A stretch of 64,000 nt of DNA from Anaerolineae bacterium. GTDB lineage: Bacteria > Chloroflexota > Anaerolineae > DRVO01. The stretch spans positions 1,322,691 through 1,386,690 of the forward strand of contig JAXGMM010000001.1 in the NCBI GenBank assembly GCA_040768685.1. Direction: 5' to 3'. Below, in pieces: positions 11,823 to 53,953 of the stretch (positions are counted from its first letter, which is position 1; each line of letters opens with the position of its first letter). The notes below the pieces were generated by a model. The model searched no databases and was not told where the DNA came from. It saw only the letters and a list, made by a program, of their open reading frames with translations. Made by a program: the position numbers and the translations under genes.

Positions 11823-12833
11823 ATGAGCAACTGGAGCGATGCCGGGCTGGCCGAGGCCTTTCGGGGAAGCAGAGTCATGATCACCGGGGGCCTGGGCTTC
11901 ATCGGCAGCAACCTTGCCATCGCGCTGGTGGATCTTGGGGCGGACGTCCTTCTGGTGGACTCCTTGATACCCCGCTATGGCGGCAACGTGCACAACATCG
12001 CACCCGTCCGGGATCGCGTCCGGGTCAATATCGCGGACGTGCGCGACGAGTACAGCATGAACCATCTGGTCCAGGGCCGGGACTTCATCTTCAACCTCGC
12101 AGGTCAGGTCAGTCATCTTGACTCCATGCAGGACCCTTACACGGACCTGGACATCAACTGCCGTAGCCAGCTATCCATCCTGGAGGCGTGCCGCAAGCAC
12201 AACCCCGGAGTCAAGGTAGTGTACTCCGGTACCAGGCAGCAGTACGGCAAGCCGGACTACTTGCCGGTGGATGAGCGGCACCTAATGCATCCCACCGACG
12301 TGAACGGCATCAACAAGATGGCGGGCGAGTGGTACCACATCGTCTACAACAACGTCTACGGCATCCGTGCCTGCAGCCTGCGGTTGACCAACACCTACGG
12401 CCCGCGCATGCGCATCGCAGATGCTCGCCAGACCTTCGTGGGTTGGTGGTTGCGCTTGGTTGTGGAGGATCGAGAGATCGAGATCTATGGCGACGGGTCG
12501 CAACTGCGCGACTTCAACCACGTAGACGACGTGGTGCGGGCGTTTCTGATGGCCGCCTCTTGTGACGCCGCCGATGGTCGGGTCTTCAACCTGGGCTCGC
12601 CCGAACCAGTGTCGCTCCGGCAACTGGCCGAACTGCTGGTGGCGGCTCGGGGATCGGGCGACTGGCGGCTGGTGCCATGGCCGGCCGAACGCCGCGCCAT
12701 TGACATCGGCTCTTACTACGGCGACTATACGCGCGCCCGGGTGGAGTTGGGCTGGGAGCCGCAGATATCCTTGGCGGAAGGCCTGAAGTCAACCATCGAG
12801 TACTATCTGGCGAACCTGCCCTACTACGTCTGA
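11823..12833 (+). CDS. NAD-dependent nucleotide-sugar epimerase/dehydratase (extended SDR)
   Basis: ITGGLGFIGSNL Rossmann motif, YxxxK region (YGKPDY...). Confidence 0.85.
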   Translation: MSNWSDAGLAEAFRGSRVMITGGLGFIGSNLAIALVDLGADVLLVDSLIPRYGGNVHNIAPVRDRVRVNIADVRDEYSMNHLVQGRDFIFNLAGQVSHLDSMQDPYTDLDINCRSQLSILEACRKHNPGVKVVYSGTRQQYGKPDYLPVDERHLMHPTDVNGINKMAGEWYHIVYNNVYGIRACSLRLTNTYGPRMRIADARQTFVGWWLRLVVEDREIEIYGDGSQLRDFNHVDDVVRAFLMAASCDAADGRVFNLGSPEPVSLRQLAELLVAARGSGDWRLVPWPAERRAIDIGSYYGDYTRARVELGWEPQISLAEGLKSTIEYYLANLPYYV

Positions 12834-19281: not shown

Positions 19282-20471
19282 TCTGTCGCTCGGCCCGGCG
19301 CCAGCGGGCTCATGGCTCGCAGCCGCTGGACGATGCCCGGCAGCACCTCAAGCACCCGATCCACCTGAGCATCGGTGCTGCTGTGCCCCAGAGTAAGGCG
19401 CAGGCTCCCGTGCGCCAACTCGTGCGGAATGCCCATGGCCAGCAGGACTCCGGACGGCTCCAGGGCGCCGGACGTGCATGCCGACCCGCTGCTGGCCGCT
19501 ACGTCCTCCATGTCGAGGCTTAGCAGGATGGACTCGCCTTCAATGTAGCGAAAGACGAAACTGGCGCTATTCGGCAGGCGCAGCCGAGGGTGGCCGGTCA
19601 ACCTGGAGTCGGGAATCGTTGCCAGCACGCCCCGGATGAGGCGGTCCCGCAGGCGCCCAAGGCGCTTGCTCTCCTCCTCGCGCTCTGCTTGCGCCAGGCC
19701 CAGCGCGGTGGCCAGTCCGACAATGCCGGCCACGTTCTCAGTGCCCGCGCGACGGTTGCGTTCCTGCCCTCCGCCCGTCAGGGTGGCGACAAAGGGGGTG
19801 CCGCGCCGAACGTAGAGGACGCCTACGCCCTTGGGCCCGTAGAACTTGTGCGCCGAGAGGGAAAGGGCGTCCACTCCAAGCTCATTCACGTCCAGACTCA
19901 GCAGGCCGGCCGCCTGCACGGCGTCGGTGTGGAGAGGCACTGAACGAGCATGAGCGATGGCGGCCAGTTCCTCCAAAGGCTCGATTGTTCCGACCTCATT
20001 GTTGGCGTACATGATGCTTACGAGGGCGGTGTCATCGCGCAGGGCTGCTTCCAGATCAGAGGGGCGGACCATGGCGTGCTCGTCGACGGGAAGGTAGGTG
20101 GCCTCGAATCCGAAGTACTTCTCCATCCACTCCACCGTGTGCAGCACGGCGTGATGCTCGACGGCCGAGGTTACGATGTGCTTGCGGCCTCTCCGTTGCT
20201 GCTGTGCGAGGCCGATGCCCCGCAGAGCAGCGTTATCCGCCTCGGTGCCGCCGGAGGTGAAGTACACCTCCTCTGGCAGGCAGTTGAGAATGGAGGCAAC
20301 CTGCTCCCGCGCGTGTCTCAGGGCCGCCGCGGCCTCCCGTCCGGTCCCGTAGATGCTGGAGGGGTTGCCGAACCGCTCCGTTAGGTAGGGAACCATAGCG
20401 TCCACCACTCTGGGATCGACCGGAGTGGTTGCCGCGTGGTCCAGGTAGATCAGACTGCTTGTAGCCGACAT
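19266..20471 (-). CDS. iscS: Cysteine desulfurase (NifS/IscS, class V aminotransferase)
   Basis: LSAHKFYGPKGVGVLYV PLP-lysine region, SGSACTSG active-site cysteine loop. Confidence 0.9.
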   Translation of the reverse strand: MSATSSLIYLDHAATTPVDPRVVDAMVPYLTERFGNPSSIYGTGREAAAALRHAREQVASILNCLPEEVYFTSGGTEADNAALRGIGLAQQQRRGRKHIVTSAVEHHAVLHTVEWMEKYFGFEATYLPVDEHAMVRPSDLEAALRDDTALVSIMYANNEVGTIEPLEELAAIAHARSVPLHTDAVQAAGLLSLDVNELGVDALSLSAHKFYGPKGVGVLYVRRGTPFVATLTGGGQERNRRAGTENVAGIVGLATALGLAQAEREEESKRLGRLRDRLIRGVLATIPDSRLTGHPRLRLPNSASFVFRYIEGESILLSLDMEDVAASSGSACTSGALEPSGVLLAMGIPHELAHGSLRLTLGHSSTDAQVDRVLEVLPGIVQRLRAMSPLAPGRATECATP

Positions 20472-48077: not shown

Positions 48078-48368
48078 GTGGTGATCGGGGTATGTCAGGT
48101 CGAATTGGTGGTCTCCGATGCCGCCTCGATCAAGGACAAGCGTCGGGTGGTTCGTTCCGTCGTGCAGCGGATGCGGTCCAAGTTCAACGTCGGCGTGGCC
48201 GAAGTGGGGGAGTTGGACTCCTGGCAAGTGGCAATCCTCGGGATAGTGTGCGTCTCCAATGAGACCGGCCACGCTGCTTCAATTCTGAGCAGCGTTCTTG
48301 ACTGGCTGGAGGCCGAGCGAATCGACGCGGAGATCGGGGCCGTGTCAACCAGCGTCGAGGTATGGTGA
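48078..48368 (+). CDS. DUF503-family protein (YlxP-like)
   Basis: 96 aa, GTG start 4 nt after the rluD stop; family-typical hydrophobic/charged pattern. Confidence 0.6.
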   Translation: MVIGVCQVELVVSDAASIKDKRRVVRSVVQRMRSKFNVGVAEVGELDSWQVAILGIVCVSNETGHAASILSSVLDWLEAERIDAEIGAVSTSVEVW

Positions 48369-48375
48369 CGGGCAC

Positions 48376-49698
48376 GTGGACGAAGAAGTACGCGAGGAAC
48401 TGAGCGAGCGGGAGGTCGAGATACTCCGGTTGGTGGCCACCGGGGCCAGCAACAAGGAGATCGCCTCTCAGCTGGACATAACACCAAACACGGTCAAGGT
48501 ACATCTCCGAAACGTGTTCGGCAAGCTTGGTGTGCGCTCTCGCACCGAAGCGAGCATGGTGGCCATCGAAATGGGCCTTGTGCCTGCCGTCGCCACAAGC
48601 ATTAGCGTGGCGCCGGCAGAGGGTGAGCCGGCGCCTGTGGTCCCGCCCGCAGCAATAGCGTGGTGGCAGAAGGCCTCGCTCGTCGCGGTGCTGCTGGCCG
48701 CTGTGACGCTGGTGATCTGGCCCGCGCGGCCGGCGGCGAGGGCAGCCGCGCCGGGTCCTGATCCCTTACGTGAATCCGTTGTGTCCCGCGCTGCCTCCGG
48801 CGGACGCGAGGAGGTGGGGCGGTGGAGCGAGGCCGCGCAGATGCCCACTGGCCGGCACCGTTTCGCCGCCGCCTACGTCGACTCATTGATCGTCGTCGCG
48901 GGCGGCGACACCGCCGAGGGGATTACCAACTCGGTAGAGATCTACGACACGGGGACCAACACCTGGCGACTCGGTGCATCCAAGCCCACGGGCGTCAGCA
49001 ACGTGGCCGCGGCGGTGGTTGGCGGGCGCATGTATGTGCCGGGCGGCCTCACCGCTGACGGCCAGGTCATAGACACGGTTGAGATCTACGATCCGGTCGC
49101 CGATAGCTGGTCAGCCGGCACGCCACTCCCGGTTGGGCTCTGCGCCTACGCGCTGGCCACGGATGGCGACACCCTGTACCTCGCGGGAGGTTGGGACGGG
49201 CGACAGAATCGATCCGGTGTCTACGCCCTGGATGCAGGGGCTGAGTCATGGCGGCTACTGTCAATGCTTCCCCGGCCGGTCCTGCATCCGGCGGCAGTGT
49301 GGGCGCAAGGCACTCTGTATGTGCTCGGGGGATACGACGGGCGACAGGTGCGCAACGAGGTGCTGGCACTCGCCACGGACGCCGGCGCACCGTCCGAGTG
49401 GGAGACGCTGCCGCCTCTGGCGGAAGCGCGGGCCGGACTGGGCGCCGCCGTGGTGGGCGACGGGATCTACGTCGTAGGCGGTGGCTGGAGCGCCCCGACC
49501 GCCTTCTGCGAGCGATTGCCCTGGGGCGCAGAGCGCTGGGAACCCTGGGAGATGCCGGTGGTGGGCGCCTGGAGGAACATGGCTGTCGTGGCCGACGACA
49601 CCACCATCTACGCCATCGGCGGCTGGAACGGCGACATCGGGGCAGAGCTATACCGCTACCAGGCGGTGTACCGAGTGATGCTTCCGATCACCGGCTAG
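48376..49698 (+). CDS. Membrane-anchored LuxR/GerE-type HTH regulator with an extracytoplasmic Kelch-repeat beta-propeller (GTG start)
   Basis: N-terminal GerE HTH (EILRLVATGASNKEIASQLDITPNTVKVHLRNVFGKLGV), one TM helix (ASLVAVLLAAVTLVIW), six Kelch-like repeats (GG.....YV.GG / W motifs). Confidence 0.7.
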   Translation: MDEEVREELSEREVEILRLVATGASNKEIASQLDITPNTVKVHLRNVFGKLGVRSRTEASMVAIEMGLVPAVATSISVAPAEGEPAPVVPPAAIAWWQKASLVAVLLAAVTLVIWPARPAARAAAPGPDPLRESVVSRAASGGREEVGRWSEAAQMPTGRHRFAAAYVDSLIVVAGGDTAEGITNSVEIYDTGTNTWRLGASKPTGVSNVAAAVVGGRMYVPGGLTADGQVIDTVEIYDPVADSWSAGTPLPVGLCAYALATDGDTLYLAGGWDGRQNRSGVYALDAGAESWRLLSMLPRPVLHPAAVWAQGTLYVLGGYDGRQVRNEVLALATDAGAPSEWETLPPLAEARAGLGAAVVGDGIYVVGGGWSAPTAFCERLPWGAERWEPWEMPVVGAWRNMAVVADDTTIYAIGGWNGDIGAELYRYQAVYRVMLPITG

Positions 49699-50590
49699 AG
49701 GCCCGCTGGATCCGGCGACGGAGCGCGGGCCAGGTGTGCCGGCTGATCCCCAGCCGCTCCGCCATTTCCTGATTGTCGGCCCCCGAATCATGCAGGCGTG
49801 CCGCCGCTGTGGCACGCAGGGCGCGAAAGGACGGATTGCGCGATAGGCCGGCGTTGCGCCCCGTTCGCGCCAGGACGTACTCCAGGTTCCGCCCCGTGCA
49901 GTCGAAGAGCCTGCCCTCGCCGCTGTGAGACTCACGGAAGCCCAGGAACGCCTCCACCACCTGCGGGTCCAGATCGACCGTGCGTCGACGGTCGTCGCGG
50001 CCTACGGACAGGGTGCCCGAATCGGGGTCTATGTCCGTCACGTCGAGGGAGAGCGCTTCGGCCTTGGAGATCCCCGAGCTCAGAAGCAACGTTGCCAGCA
50101 GCAGTGGGCGCCAGTCACCCTCGCCTGCCTCAGCCGCAGCTGCCTCGACCAATGCGGCGGCCTCTTCCTCAGTCAGCATGTCCCCACCCGGTTCGTTCGG
50201 CGTTGGGGCCTGCACCGTCGTCGAAACGATCGGATTGGCCTGAACCACGCCCTCGTCGATCAGGTATCGGAACAGCGACTGAACCGCTGTAAGGCGGCGA
50301 CGCAGCGACGATGGGCTGCAGGCAACGCCCCGTTCCTTGGTGAGAAAGCGCCGGAACTGCTCGCCGTGTTCGGCGCCGACCTCGCCAATGGGAACGTCCA
50401 TGCCGGCGGAGTCGCAAAACAGCCGGAGATCGGCCTCGAAGGCCGACACCGTGTTGGGGCTTACCCCGTCTTGGGCGAGTGTCTCGATGTACACGGAGAT
50501 GACCGTGGCCAGCGGTGTTGAGGCGCCGATTCGGGGCGACAAGGTCCAAGGGCGATCGGGATCTAGCTTGAGCACTGGGTATGCAGCCAT
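49688..50590 (-). CDS. Tyrosine-recombinase (XerC/XerD) fold protein. The usual catalytic residues, including the C-terminal Tyr, are not evident, so it may be degenerate or non-catalytic.
   Basis: N-terminal SAM-like core-binding domain (VISVYIETLAQDGVSPNTVSAFEADL, RRRLTAVQSLFRYLIDEGV). The C-terminal region aligns to the catalytic domain, but the LGH...YTH region reads LGISRHTWPALRR and the HxxR position reads FRALRATAA. Confidence 0.55.
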   Translation of the reverse strand: MAAYPVLKLDPDRPWTLSPRIGASTPLATVISVYIETLAQDGVSPNTVSAFEADLRLFCDSAGMDVPIGEVGAEHGEQFRRFLTKERGVACSPSSLRRRLTAVQSLFRYLIDEGVVQANPIVSTTVQAPTPNEPGGDMLTEEEAAALVEAAAAEAGEGDWRPLLLATLLLSSGISKAEALSLDVTDIDPDSGTLSVGRDDRRRTVDLDPQVVEAFLGFRESHSGEGRLFDCTGRNLEYVLARTGRNAGLSRNPSFRALRATAAARLHDSGADNQEMAERLGISRHTWPALRRRIQRASSR

Positions 50591-50634
50591 AGTAGATGCT
50601 ATGTTATGCTCTCAGGCCAGGGCTAGTCAACACG

Positions 50635-50976
50635 ATGCACGAACTGGGAGTGACTGAAAGCGTATTACGCCTGGTGGTCGAGGAGGCGGAGCGACACGGC
50701 GCCTCTCGGATCACCGTCGTCAACCTGGAGATAGGTGAGTTCGCTTCCATTGTACCCGACGCGGTGGAGTTCTACTGGCCGTTTGTCGCATCGGCAACCA
50801 TCGCGGACGGAGCGCAGCTGCACTGGCGGACCCTGCCGGCAGAGGCGCGCTGCTCGGGATGCGACACGGTCTACCGCCCAGCGGCGAGGGACATGACGTG
50901 CCCGTGCTGTGGAGGCGTGCAGGGACGCCTGCTTGGGGGTGAGGAGTTCCGCGTCGAGTCGATCGAGATCGAGTAG
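50635..50976 (+). CDS. hypA: Hydrogenase nickel-insertion metallochaperone HypA. Start re-assigned to MHELGV.
   Basis: MHE N-terminus, CxxC...CxxC zinc site (CSGCD...CPCCG). Confidence 0.85.
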   Translation: MHELGVTESVLRLVVEEAERHGASRITVVNLEIGEFASIVPDAVEFYWPFVASATIADGAQLHWRTLPAEARCSGCDTVYRPAARDMTCPCCGGVQGRLLGGEEFRVESIEIE

Positions 50977-50985
50977 GAGGGCGAA

Positions 50986-51651
50986 TTGGCGAAGGTAATC
51001 GAGGTCGGACGGTCGGTGATGGCGGCCGCTCAGGCGACCGCGGAATCCAACAGGGGTCTGCTGGACCGAGCCGGGGTGCTGGCGGTTAACATGATGGCGT
51101 CCCCGGGAGCGGGCAAGACCACGCTGATTGTGGAGACGGCGAGGCGGCTTTCGCCCTCCGTCAGGTGCGCTGTGGTGGAGGGCGATGTCGCCGGGGACCT
51201 GGACGCCCGCGCGGTGGAAGAGGCAGGCTTCTCGGCCGTCCAGATAAACACCGGCGGCGGCTGCCACTTGCGAGCCGACATGCTCGCCGCAGCGCTGGCG
51301 GAGGTGGACCTGAACGCGGTCGACGTCCTTTTCATTGAGAACGTTGGAAACCTGATCTGTCCCGCCGGTGTTCCTCTGGGCGAGCACCTCCGGGTGGTGG
51401 TCTCCAGCACGGCAGAGGGCGACGATAAGCCTGTCAAGTACCCGACTGTCTTCAGGAACGCCGATGCGGTGGTCGTCAGCAAGTGGGATATCGCTCCCTA
51501 TATCAGCTTCGATCTGGAGCGCTACACCGATGCCGTTCGCCGGCTGAACGGCGAAGTGCCTGTGTTCACCCTGTCGGCGCGGACCGGTGAAGGCGTCGAG
51601 GCCTGGATCGACTGGTTGCGCGCTCGGGCAGACGGTGCCCGCGGAGCCTAG
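50986..51651 (+). CDS. hypB: Hydrogenase maturation GTPase HypB
   Basis: SPGAGKTTL P-loop, CH-type metal-binding region, G-domain motifs (VSKWD). Confidence 0.9.
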   Translation: MAKVIEVGRSVMAAAQATAESNRGLLDRAGVLAVNMMASPGAGKTTLIVETARRLSPSVRCAVVEGDVAGDLDARAVEEAGFSAVQINTGGGCHLRADMLAAALAEVDLNAVDVLFIENVGNLICPAGVPLGEHLRVVVSSTAEGDDKPVKYPTVFRNADAVVVSKWDIAPYISFDLERYTDAVRRLNGEVPVFTLSARTGEGVEAWIDWLRARADGARGA

Positions 51652-53953
51652 AGCCTTTCACATCACCGTGCGCGGCACGGTGCAGGGCGTTGGCTTTCGT
51701 CCTTTCGTGTATCGATTGGCCAACGAGCTGGGCCTGGCCGGCTGGGTGCAGAACCGCTCCGGCGACGTCACCATCCACATAGAGGGCGAGGACGGCGCTG
51801 TCGACCGCTTCCAGGAGCGGTTGGCGGCGGAACTGCCGCCCCTCGCCCGCATTGACCACCTTGCGGTCGCTCAAGCTCCGGCAACGGCTGTTGATGGCTT
51901 CACAATCCGGCGGAGCGAGGGTGAGGGCGGCCACCAACCCGTCAGCCCCGACGTAGCTACCTGTGCGGCGTGCAGTGCTGAGTTGCTGGATCCATCGGAC
52001 CGGCGCTACCTCTACCCCTTCATCAACTGCACCGATTGCGGTCCCCGCTACACCATCATCGAGCGTGTGCCGTACGATCGGGGTAACACGACGATGCAGG
52101 GGTTCGCCATGTGCGACTACTGCCGCAGCCAGTACGAGGACCCTGGGGATCGGCGATTCCATGCGCAGCCAGTCGCCTGTCCGGTCTGTGGGCCGCGCAT
52201 TTGGCTGGAGGAGGGCGACGGGGTTAGCAGCGGGGCCGCGGGAGACGTGATTCGCGCTGCGGCGGGAGTGCTCCGCAGCGGAGGGGTGCTAGCCCTGAAG
52301 GGGCTGGGCGGGTTCCACTTGGCTGTGGACGCGACCTTCGATGCTGCGGTAGCCGCGCTGCGCGAGCGCAAAGGGCGCCCCCACAAGGCTTTGGCGGTGA
52401 TGGTGGCGGACGTGGAAGCGGCGTCGAGCCTGTGCGCCGTGTCGGAAACGGCGAGTCTGCTGCTGAGTTCGCCGGCCGCCCCGATCGTGCTCCTGCCCCT
52501 CCGCCAGGATACGGAGCCTGTGCTCAGTTCGCATATCGCCCCAGATCACGGAAGCGTCGGGGTGATGCTGCCATACACCCCTCTTCACTTGCTGCTACTG
52601 CGGGAATACGGCGGGCCCCTGGTGATGACCAGCGGCAATCTCTCCGATGAACCGCTCGCCGTGGACAACACGGAGGCGCGCCGGCGCCTAAGCGCTATGG
52701 CCGACGCCTTTCTCATGCACGACCGCCCCATTCACATGCCTTGCGACGACAGCGTTATGGATCTGTGCGATGTGGGCGCGCGGGAAGGCGAGTCCCCCCT
52801 GCTCGTCCGGCGGGCGCGCGGGTATGCCCCGTCGCCGCTTCGTCTGCCGTTGGCAGGGCCGCAGGTCCTGGGTGTCGGCCCCGAGATGAAAGCCACCGTT
52901 GCTCTCGCCCGCGACGAGTACGCATACGTTAGCCAGCATCTGGGCGACCTGGACAACGCCTGCACGGAGGATCACTTCCATCGGGTGGTGGCGCAGTTCG
53001 AGGACCTGTTCTCGGTCGAGCCCGAGGCCATCGCCCATGATCTTCATCCCGACTTCTTCAGCACGCGCTACGCGCAAGACAGGGCTAGCCGCGAGGGCCA
53101 GTTGCTGATACCGGTACAGCACCACCATGCCCACGCCCTAAGTTGCATCGCGGAGAACGATGCCGCCCTGCTCGAGGAGCCCGTCGTGGCGGTGGTGCTG
53201 GACGGAACAGGGTATGGGACCGACGGGTCGATCTGGGGTGGGGAGTGGCTGATCGTCGCCGGCGCGACCGCAGAGCGATGCGCGCACCTGCAGTACGTTC
53301 CGCTCGTGGGCGGGGACGCTGCTGTTCGACGGGTCGATCGTCTGGCGCTCGCCTATCTCATGGCCCTCGGCCTGGCGGACCGCGTGCCTGGTCAGGGCCT
53401 CCTGACCGGAATCGCGCCGGAGGAGCGCGAGTTGCTCCGGGCCGGGCTGCAGAGCCCGTGGACGGTGAGGACCTCGAGCATGGGCCGGCTCTTCGACGTG
53501 GTCGCGGCGCTGTTGGGGCTCGCGAGTGAAGTGACCTACGAGGCTCAGGCGGCCATTCGTCTGCAGACGCTGGCCGAGCGGGCCGCCGGTGGGGCGCAGG
53601 AGCCGCTCAGCTACCCTTGGCGGCGCGAAGGGGAGCAGGTGATCGTCTCTGACCTGCTGGCCGCCGTGCTGGACGATCGAGAGGCCGGCAGGTCCTTGGA
53701 GCAGGTTGCGCTCGCCTTCCACCACTCGGTTGCCGAAATGGTCGTCGCTGGGGCGGAGGCGATGGCCCAGTCGGTGAACACGCGGAATGTGGCGCTCTCC
53801 GGCGGGTGCTTCCAGAACCGGCTGCTGACCTCGCTGTGCGTTCGTGCGCTACGGGCCCGAGGCCTTACGCCCCGAACGCACCGGGCGCTCCCACCGAACG
53901 ATGGCTGCGTCTCCCTGGGCCAGGTGGTAGCGGCGCGACTTCTGCACCGCTGA
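51635..53953 (+). CDS. hypF: Carbamoyltransferase HypF (acylphosphatase, two Zn fingers, YrdC-like and Kae1-like domains). GTG start overlaps the hypB end.
   Basis: Acylphosphatase motif VRGTVQGVGFRPFVYRLA, two CxxC-x18-CxxC zinc fingers, YrdC and Kae1/HypF C-terminal domains. Confidence 0.9.
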   Translation: MPAEPRAFHITVRGTVQGVGFRPFVYRLANELGLAGWVQNRSGDVTIHIEGEDGAVDRFQERLAAELPPLARIDHLAVAQAPATAVDGFTIRRSEGEGGHQPVSPDVATCAACSAELLDPSDRRYLYPFINCTDCGPRYTIIERVPYDRGNTTMQGFAMCDYCRSQYEDPGDRRFHAQPVACPVCGPRIWLEEGDGVSSGAAGDVIRAAAGVLRSGGVLALKGLGGFHLAVDATFDAAVAALRERKGRPHKALAVMVADVEAASSLCAVSETASLLLSSPAAPIVLLPLRQDTEPVLSSHIAPDHGSVGVMLPYTPLHLLLLREYGGPLVMTSGNLSDEPLAVDNTEARRRLSAMADAFLMHDRPIHMPCDDSVMDLCDVGAREGESPLLVRRARGYAPSPLRLPLAGPQVLGVGPEMKATVALARDEYAYVSQHLGDLDNACTEDHFHRVVAQFEDLFSVEPEAIAHDLHPDFFSTRYAQDRASREGQLLIPVQHHHAHALSCIAENDAALLEEPVVAVVLDGTGYGTDGSIWGGEWLIVAGATAERCAHLQYVPLVGGDAAVRRVDRLALAYLMALGLADRVPGQGLLTGIAPEERELLRAGLQSPWTVRTSSMGRLFDVVAALLGLASEVTYEAQAAIRLQTLAERAAGGAQEPLSYPWRREGEQVIVSDLLAAVLDDREAGRSLEQVALAFHHSVAEMVVAGAEAMAQSVNTRNVALSGGCFQNRLLTSLCVRALRARGLTPRTHRALPPNDGCVSLGQVVAARLLHR

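Follow-up and report, generated by a model that had tools for sequence, protein, structure and literature searches.

A Xer-like protein family of Anaerolineae that has lost its catalytic residues

Proteins that keep the tyrosine-recombinase fold and have lost catalysis are already known from phages (MrpR and SroF), from transposons (TnsF) and from domesticated genes of eukaryotes. MrpR (YopR) of SPbeta is a repressor with the recombinase fold that retains three of the seven catalytic residues and does not carry out recombination (PMC10516654), while SroF of phi3T is a DNA-binding master repressor with the same fold (10.1101/2025.11.27.690993). TnsF is the inactivated tyrosine recombinase that selects targets for Tn6022-like Tn7 transposons (PMC10293859). 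Recombinase-derived DNA-binding modules have also been recruited as host regulators, i.e., FliZ, ALOG and the Crypton-derived DUF3504 (PMC3367168, PMC3537659, PMC3212892). XerD has a second job as a site-specific unloader of SMC at the terminus (cited in PMC12322038). Here we describe a gene for a catalytically dead Xer-like protein (hereafter the dead-Xer gene) that lies divergent from hypA in a 64,000-nucleotide stretch of an Anaerolineae bacterium genome (GenBank assembly GCA_040768685.1, contig JAXGMM010000001.1, positions 1,322,691 to 1,386,690). We refer to this whole stretch as the window, and coordinates of the gene and its surroundings are collected in Table 1. Our literature search turned up no report of a dead Xer paralog in bacteria that is encoded on the host chromosome, in single copy and throughout a class.

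A Xer-like fold without the catalytic residues

The 300-residue protein has the fold of the tyrosine-recombinase superfamily, with a core-binding and a catalytic-type domain. Pfam matched Phage_int_SAM_1 (PF02899) at residues 34-114 (E = 1.1e-8; 35.7 bits, above the gathering score) and Phage_integrase (PF00589) at residues 138-281 (E = 8.4e-10; 39.1 bits versus a cut-off of 27.1). The best NCBIfam models were XerC, XerD and XerA, at 67-81 bits versus cut-offs of 220-335; the XerC equivalog TIGR02224 reached 80.6 of 335 bits (E = 1.3e-22) and the XerD equivalog TIGR02225 72.4 of 330 bits, both below threshold. An AlphaFold2 model built from a 74-sequence family alignment had a mean predicted local distance difference test (pLDDT) score of 92.2 and was uncertain only in the first ~20 residues and the inter-domain linker. 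In this model the core-binding domain consists of four helices (residues 27-40, 45-62, 73-86 and 93-112), and its residues T47, D54, L55, R98 and R99 are invariant or near-invariant in the family. Foldseek searches of the PDB returned XerA, lambda Int, Tn1549 Int, IntI4, XerH and Cre at a probability of 1.00, with an E-value of 4e-12 for XerA (5hxy).

We mapped the catalytic hexad R-K-H-R-H-Y in two ways: by MAFFT L-INS-i alignment with Escherichia coli XerD (R148, K172, H244, R247, H270, Y279), and by hhalign of the 74-sequence family profile against a 30-sequence profile of canonical Xer proteins (probability 100%, E = 2.6e-48). Five of the six positions are replaced in the window protein and Arg-II is the sole survivor; outside the hexad, RxxE retains its acidic residue (E178). 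The hhalign block stops at A289, two residues short of R291, and the Tyr position is thus assigned from MAFFT together with an extension of the hhalign register. An initial annotation of the window, made from the letters alone, had proposed a Xer-like fold lacking the catalytic tyrosine and other active-site residues, and the Pfam, AlphaFold2, Foldseek, MAFFT and hhalign results all bear this out. Its manual alignment was essentially right, except that the histidine of HxxR corresponds to R256 and not F255, and that the arginine of HxxR and the glutamate of RxxE are kept. The profile alignment did not bring back a complete R-K-H-R-H-Y set, five of the six residues being absent there too.

We also considered whether a frameshift or sequencing error hides a canonical C-terminus. 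Translating the gene's strand in its three frames at the 3' end revealed no TTxxYTH-like tail, so a frameshift cannot restore one, and every full-length relative has the same short tail. The segment after the LG motif comprises 19 residues forming one helix in the AlphaFold2 model, versus 29 residues in XerD. The catalytic-type domain additionally carries a family-specific motif, C-T-G-R-N-L-E-Y-V-L, at residues 231-240, and ends in a basic helix (W287-PALRRRIQR). Weak matches to Pfam helix-turn-helix (HTH) families were obtained at residues 257-298 (E = 0.01-0.08). A swapped-in HTH was nevertheless ruled out: hhalign pairs this segment column by column with the alpha-helical HxxR...LGH region of Xer proteins, and the segment therefore represents remodelling and no domain swap.

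Among described proteins, XerC, XerD and XerA are the best matches in both sequence and structure, and they share with the window protein the two-domain fold, the core-binding motifs, a similar size and a chromosomal single-copy gene. They differ in having the full hexad with its tyrosine and a tail about 10 residues longer, and they have neither CTGRNLEYVL nor the N-terminal extension. MrpR (8a0a, E = 6.8e-5) and SroF (9rd5, E = 8.4e-5) were also among the Foldseek matches, at 12% identity and thus at the level of fold only. Like the window protein they combine a tyrosine-recombinase fold with lost catalysis, but they are phage-encoded and bind repeated prophage operators to repress lytic genes, whereas the family described here is host chromosomal and has no viral relatives. 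Moreover, MrpR keeps a tyrosine at the nucleophile position, where the window protein has R291, and the window protein is closer in sequence to Xer. TnsF provides a precedent for a DNA binder with a kept scaffold and lost catalysis; its N-terminal zinc fingers, tandem core-binding domains and transposon with tnsABC have no counterpart at the window gene. FliZ and ALOG keep the core-binding domain only and DUF3504 is eukaryotic, whereas the window protein keeps both domains.

As a separate observation, the best PDB sequence match was chain 14 of 9i5v, a 401-residue protein deposited as 'Ribosome-associated translation inhibitor RaiA'. Over residues 67-269 this chain can be aligned as a canonical Xer-like recombinase (LRHSFATE...LLG), and the entry may represent a recombinase-RaiA fusion or a labelling oddity.

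Family conservation, distribution and N-terminal peptides

The catalytic losses are shared by a large family, which comprises at least 100 clusters at 50% identity. A word-indexed search returned 29 relatives at E<1e-20 in which the same residues are lost, and after these come true Xer proteins with an intact hexad; an exhaustive search of a library clustered at 50% identity gave 263 representatives at E<=1e-10. Hexad classification, which covers 182 aligned sequences, gave 88 clear dead signatures, 51 RKHRHY sequences and 43 others; N-terminal fragments in which Lys takes the place of Arg-I make up many of these 43. Written as the six hexad positions, 66 of the 88 dead sequences have the main form K-x-[EQD]-R-[LI]-x and 22 have the window-subclade form [STA]-x-R-R-I-R.

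Conservation within the family lies outside the lost chemistry. Across 74 diverse members, R203 in the beta-hairpin, R259 (Arg-II) and G281 are invariant, while T47, D54, R98, R99, G173 and E178 are at least 90% conserved; CTGRNLEYVL is the best-conserved stretch. The Lys and Tyr positions of the hexad are variable, as expected of positions no longer used. Compared with an 80%-identical ortholog at locus L072 (loci and proteins are cited by our L and P numbers), the ratio of nonsynonymous to synonymous substitution rates (dN/dS) of the dead-Xer gene was 0.16 (dS 0.75), within a range of 0.16-0.34 for this gene. The same comparison gave 0.16 for hypA and 0.13 for the LuxR/Kelch gene on the other side, and this similarity to the neighbours indicates ordinary purifying selection. 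Judged from these comparisons, the gene evidently encodes an intact, functional protein, and the large family to which it belongs has these losses fixed and is held by purifying selection.

The family gene was found at 66 loci in a scan of one genome per species; overall, about 70 species-level Anaerolineae genomes carry it, each in a single copy. Nearly all were named Anaerolineae, Anaerolineales, Thermoflexales (including Thermoflexus hugenholtzii), Roseilinea, Brachytrichaceae or Chloroflexota; three were named otherwise (Pleurocapsa, Roseobacter and 'uncultured bacterium'). Two different copies in one genome were seen at none of these species-representative loci. The loci nearest to the window belong to Anaerolineae metagenome-assembled genomes (MAGs), and the window IleS is 85% identical to that of L006. 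Public databases annotate family members as 'tyrosine-type recombinase/integrase' or 'XerD'. One protein, P0151 (1051 aa), joins a Ser/Thr kinase, beta-helix repeats and a dead Xer-like module (~734-1020); it is a single case and may be a fusion or a gene-calling artefact.

An alignment of 75 sequences (74 fetched loci and the window) separates three architectural groups. Group A (24/75, including Anaerolineales) has an N-terminal extension that starts with a peptide of the QLxLF type (QLPLF, QLPLL, QPELF and similar) and continues into a variable linker, and a tail reading GLSxIxWxETLxKL....PL. Group B (about 39/75; Thermoflexales, Roseilinea and Brachytrichaceae) has no N-terminal extension. 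Group C, the window subclade (8/75), has L-D-P-x-R-P-W in place of QL[SP]LF and the basic tail GISxHTWPALRRRI.

QL[SD]LF is the consensus of the bacterial beta-clamp-binding pentapeptide, which is placed terminally in, for example, Hda. A QL[SP]LF-type motif was present in 47 representative proteins of branches other than that of the window, mostly beginning at residues 4-8, with Q in 47, L in 35 (P in 7), S in 22 (P in 16), L in 42 and F in 41 at the successive positions. Such N-termini read M-x-E-Q-L-[SP]-L-F-[PD] before the variable linker (loci L003-L005, L010-L021, L024, L027, L028, L031, L035, L037, L040, L041 and L061; proteins P0017-P0148). Exact QL[SP]LF matches were found in 0/866 neighbouring open reading frames (ORFs) and 0/120 canonical Anaerolineae recombinases. 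Many family members thus resemble Hda and other clamp clients in both the terminal position and the consensus of the peptide, and a large part of the family appears, from this motif, to be tethered to the beta sliding clamp of the replisome. In contrast, the N-terminus of the window protein, MAAYPVLKLDPDRPW, has no match of the QL[SD]LF type and hence no counterpart of the clamp clients' peptide. Our literature search found no paper that ties a clamp-binding motif to a tyrosine-recombinase-like protein.

Promoter, gene neighbourhoods and the hypA adjacency

The dead-Xer gene has its own sigma-70-type promoter. A consensus scan found one promoter-like site in 1.5 kb versus 0.1 expected, with its -35 hexamer 3-4 bp from the hypA start codon; its -10 hexamer ends 10 nt before the dead-Xer ATG, which suggests a leaderless or nearly leaderless mRNA. 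TTGACT, TAnCAT and a start-to-start distance of 43-44 bp are kept in L072, L006, L007, L001/L002 and L009. The divergent start codons 44 bp apart described in the initial annotation are confirmed by the coordinates. The interval it gave, 49688-50635, contains a real gene; by running to 50635 it also covers the 44-bp spacer (50591-50634) and one base of hypA, the first.

An operator in this spacer was considered and rejected: in an alignment of six orthologous spacers the -35 and -10 hexamers alone were conserved, with neither conservation between the hexamers nor a conserved inverted repeat. No plus-strand hypA promoter passed the consensus scan. The spacer is exactly one promoter long, so a hypA promoter, if any, would lie inside the 5' coding region of the dead-Xer gene. 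This geometry would allow transcriptional interference or co-regulation, and no positive sign of an operator accompanies it.

The adjacency to hypA is confined to the closest relatives. When eleven window neighbour proteins were searched against all loci by tblastn, hypA, hypB and hypF were found only in L001/L002, L006, L007 and L009; gene calls also place hypA and hypB in L072, whose contig ends within the next gene, one with no Pfam record. These are the loci whose dead-Xer protein is 43-80% identical to that of the window. Wherever the contig reaches, they share the collinear block ileS-lspA-rluD-DUF503-LuxR/Kelch-[dead Xer]-hypA-hypB-hypF-xseB-xseA. No hyp gene occurs within 10 kb at the other ~60 family loci, whose proteins are 27-37% identical to the window protein. 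Thus, the gene is conserved beside hypA in the syntenic block of the window subclade and not at the ~60 distant loci. As the entire 11-gene block is collinear in the genomes concerned, the adjacency says nothing beyond shared ancestry: it is one historical event within a syntenic block.

Outside this subclade the neighbourhoods change with lineage. All-against-all clustering of the ORFs of 71 loci gave only lineage-specific housekeeping blocks and no neighbour common to all, the lineage-specific neighbours being FtsH, MutS, QueA, a Lamin-Tail-Domain (LTD) protein, DegV, PBP1A and an aminotransferase. Thermoflexales and relatives have the block mutS, RecG-C-like gene, LTD-domain membrane protein, [dead Xer], yitT, ftsH and queA; a second group has PBP1A, [dead Xer] and an aminotransferase, and a third has DegV downstream.

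A second, unrelated conserved neighbourhood was observed at group B loci (L022, L026, L030, L046, L048, L052, L057, L063, L067 and others). A membrane-anchored Lamin-Tail-Domain gene lies divergent upstream at 7-180 bp, ftsH is convergent downstream, either directly or after a yitT-family gene, and mutS and a RecG-C-terminal-like (HATPase_c_4) gene lie further upstream.

In the window itself, the gene convergent with dead Xer encodes a LuxR-type HTH and Kelch beta-propeller protein, and its 3' end overlaps the dead-Xer stop by 11 bp; this architecture and overlap are kept in all subclade loci (L001, L002, L006-L009, L072). The outer flanks are housekeeping genes, namely ileS, lspA, rluD and DUF503 beyond the LuxR/Kelch gene, and xseB, xseA and a DinG-like helicase beyond the hyp genes. 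Annotation covered 33 large ORFs, i.e., hypA, hypB, hypF and 30 others, and no hypC/D/E, hydrogenase, urease or carbon monoxide dehydrogenase genes were found among those 30. The earlier remark that the window holds no hydrogenase structural genes therefore stands for the annotated large ORFs.

Three side observations concern these neighbours. The hypA-hypB-hypF trio (50635-53953) stands alone among housekeeping genes, and the same orphan trio occurs at related MAG loci. The LuxR/Kelch protein has its HTH at about residues 34-89, followed by a hydrophobic stretch and the propeller, and this N-terminal HTH gave weak PADLOC CARF3 matches (E about 1e-6). A DUF503 gene, at 48078-48368 (+) in the window, also occurs at 13022-13312 in L003, about 4 kb from a distant dead-Xer gene, possibly by coincidence.

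Table 1. Coordinates of the dead-Xer gene, its parts and its neighbours in the window.
Feature	Position	Strand	Details
Dead-Xer gene	49688..50590	-	ATG start, 300 aa; stop codon 49688-49690; from the ORF list
N-terminal extension	50513..50590	-	codons 1-26; subclade motif L-D-P-x-R-P-W; pLDDT 56-65 at residues 1-20
Core-binding (SAM-like) domain	50231..50512	-	codons 27-120; PF02899; Xer-type motifs NT..aF..DL and RR.T kept
Remodelled catalytic-type domain	49691..50170	-	codons 141-300
Arg-I position, S175	50066-50068	-	MAFFT and hhalign
Beta-hairpin Lys position, R198	49997-49999	-	MAFFT and hhalign
His-II position, R256	49823-49825	-	MAFFT and hhalign
Arg-II position, R259	49814-49816	-	retained, family-invariant; MAFFT and hhalign
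His-III position, I282	49745-49747	-	MAFFT and hhalign
Tyr position, R291	49718-49720	-	MAFFT and extension of the hhalign register
Dead-Xer promoter, sigma-70-type	50601..50630	-	TTGACT 50630-50625, 18-nt spacer, TAACAT 50606-50601
hypA, divergent neighbour	50635..50976	+	MHELGV... start; Pfam HypA full length, E 1.5e-30; genomic context
hypB	50986-51651	+	downstream of hypA; Pfam cobW/HypB-type domain
hypF	about 51587-53953	+	downstream of hypA; Pfam full HypF domain set
LuxR-type HTH and Kelch beta-propeller gene	48298..49698	+	Pfam GerE and Kelch repeats; convergent

Function and significance of the dead Xer family

The best explanation, which we hold at roughly even confidence, is that the protein is a domesticated, non-catalytic descendant of a Xer-type recombinase that binds DNA in a genome-wide chromosomal role and is vertically inherited as a single-copy gene across Anaerolineae. 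It keeps the two-domain C-clamp architecture and the residues with which Xer proteins hold DNA (the core-binding motifs, Arg203 of the beta-hairpin, Arg-II R259 and Glu178), while the loss of the nucleophile and of the acid/base residues leaves it unable to break or reseal DNA. Its gene has a strong and conserved promoter of its own, from which a probably leaderless mRNA is made. Most likely the protein binds DNA in a sequence- or structure-specific manner and leaves the strands uncut, and it may do so as an oligomer, as its ancestors did. This pattern of kept scaffold and lost chemistry matches MrpR, SroF and TnsF, and we therefore infer non-catalytic DNA binding as the default mechanism. A role in chromosome maintenance, replication or segregation, and not one dedicated to hyp genes, is favoured because the gene is single-copy, class-wide, free of mobile context and without a fixed neighbour, and because a large branch is apparently clamp-tethered. 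In many lineages the protein would be tethered to the beta sliding clamp through its N-terminal QL[SP]LF peptide. In the window subclade the clamp peptide would have been replaced by L-D-P-x-R-P-W and a basic C-terminal helix acquired, so the partner or target may have shifted there.

Several observations weigh against this explanation. No DNA target was found near the dead-Xer gene, and the chromosome-level role is argued from the absence of a conserved functional neighbour. The clamp motif is missing in the window subclade and in the Thermoflexales/Roseilinea group and so cannot explain the function of the whole family. Furthermore, the window protein has an isoelectric point (pI) of 5.3 and a net charge of -7, versus median pI values of 10.5 for the canonical Xer-like matches and 9.3 for QLxLF-bearing members (group A). 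Given this acidic pI, strong DNA binding should not be assumed for the window subclade, where a protein-partner role is possible.

Two readings of the locus had been put forward in the initial annotation. One held that a decaying integrase marks the insertion that brought in hypABF; integrase homology, the catalytic losses and an accessory-looking hyp cluster with no hydrogenase genes alongside might suggest this, or a pseudogene left by a mobile element, but we regard it as refuted. Apart from truncated database fragments, all relatives have an undisrupted ORF of much the same length, the substitutions are family-wide, and dN/dS is 0.16 (0.16-0.34 over the quoted range). The window contains no tRNA, the repeats around the hyp region are at chance level or echo the Kelch repeats and none is att-like, GC content is flat (0.62-0.69), and the flanks are housekeeping genes in conserved synteny. 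No relative of the family occurs in 2.9 million viral contigs; PHROGs gave generic integrase families only, and PADLOC gave 0 families at E<=1e-3 for the dead-Xer protein. The other reading made the protein a regulator of hypA-hypB-hypF; on this view it would be a local transcription factor, neofunctionalised in the window subclade, whose dead fold binds the hypA-proximal region and controls both these genes and its own. This is distinctly unlikely, even though dead or partial recombinase folds do repress in MrpR (PMC10516654), SroF (10.1101/2025.11.27.690993) and FliZ (PMC3367168), the divergent start codons are 43-44 bp apart wherever a subclade locus extends to both of them, and the subclade-derived Ser at Arg-I, Arg at His-II and basic C-terminal helix coincide exactly with the hyp adjacency. 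The weak HTH matches at residues 257-298 (Pfam E 0.01-0.08) could also be taken in its favour. Set against these points, the adjacency is a single event confounded with phylogeny, given the collinear 11-gene block, and no hyp gene lies within 10 kb at the ~60 other loci. Nothing but the dead-Xer -35 and -10 elements is seen in the spacer, which is unconserved between the hexamers and has no conserved inverted repeat, no plus-strand hypA promoter was detected, and the window protein is acidic. The proposed regulation of hypA-hypB-hypF is thus not supported, and is possible for group C alone.

Two further alternatives keep the protein within recombination. It could be a non-catalytic subunit that pairs with a canonical recombinase on a dif-like site, contributing half-site binding and synapsis and leaving catalysis to the partner, much as XerD is purely structural in XerC-only reactions. 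In L039 (Roseilinea; 19459-20454, minus strand) and L038 (Thermoflexales; 12293-12760, minus strand), the contig with the dead gene does carry canonical RKHRHY recombinases, at a distance of 9 kb. Their family (P0183-P0302) is widespread in Anaerolineae, is sometimes annotated XerD, and is mostly missed by Pfam in its N-terminal domain; in Candidatus Brachytrichaceae NZ_4S206 a canonical recombinase and the dead gene are both present. The dead protein therefore adds to, and does not replace, an active recombinase in at least three genomes, and the P0183-P0302 family may be the real dimer-resolution enzyme of the class. The kept core-binding motifs and Arg-II would suit a subunit as well. Nevertheless, we consider this pairing unlikely: the segment after LG falls about 10 residues short of its Xer counterpart and has a single helix in place of two, so that the region of trans contacts in tetramers is largely gone, no other locus has a recombinase near the dead gene, no dif site was identified, and a clamp-binding motif is unexpected in a dif-bound subunit. 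That the protein is still an enzyme is very improbable. A relocated nucleophile, e.g., the invariant Y238 of CTGRNLEYVL, would have to act with Arg-II and Lys/Arg substitutes; Y238, R234 and R259 are indeed invariant or nearly so, and Lys occupies the Arg-I position in most family members. However, the hexad has replacements at five of its six positions, the family varies at the Lys and Tyr positions in a manner unlike an active site, and Y238 aligns to a XerD helix outside the active site.

Returning to the domesticated, DNA-binding Xer descendant, a more specific proposal is that the clade-wide paralog is a replication-coupled DNA-binding factor that rides the clamp in many lineages and marks or organises chromosomal sites beside the active recombinase, the window lineage possibly having been rewired. 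We offer this tentatively and regard it as rather unlikely. If true, the marked sites could be the terminus or a dif-like site, sites of SMC unloading as by XerD in Bacillus, or a fork barrier. In the original Bacillus study, the unloading job was reportedly independent of catalysis.

These findings bear on how genomes of this class are read. Counts of Xer proteins and integrases in Chloroflexota genome surveys are inflated by the dead-Xer family, and predictors of islands or prophages that rely on integrases would set false borders at this gene. Likewise, the hypA adjacency gives no basis for annotating it as a regulator of hydrogenase maturation. More broadly, the family provides a clean case of an enzyme turned binding protein.

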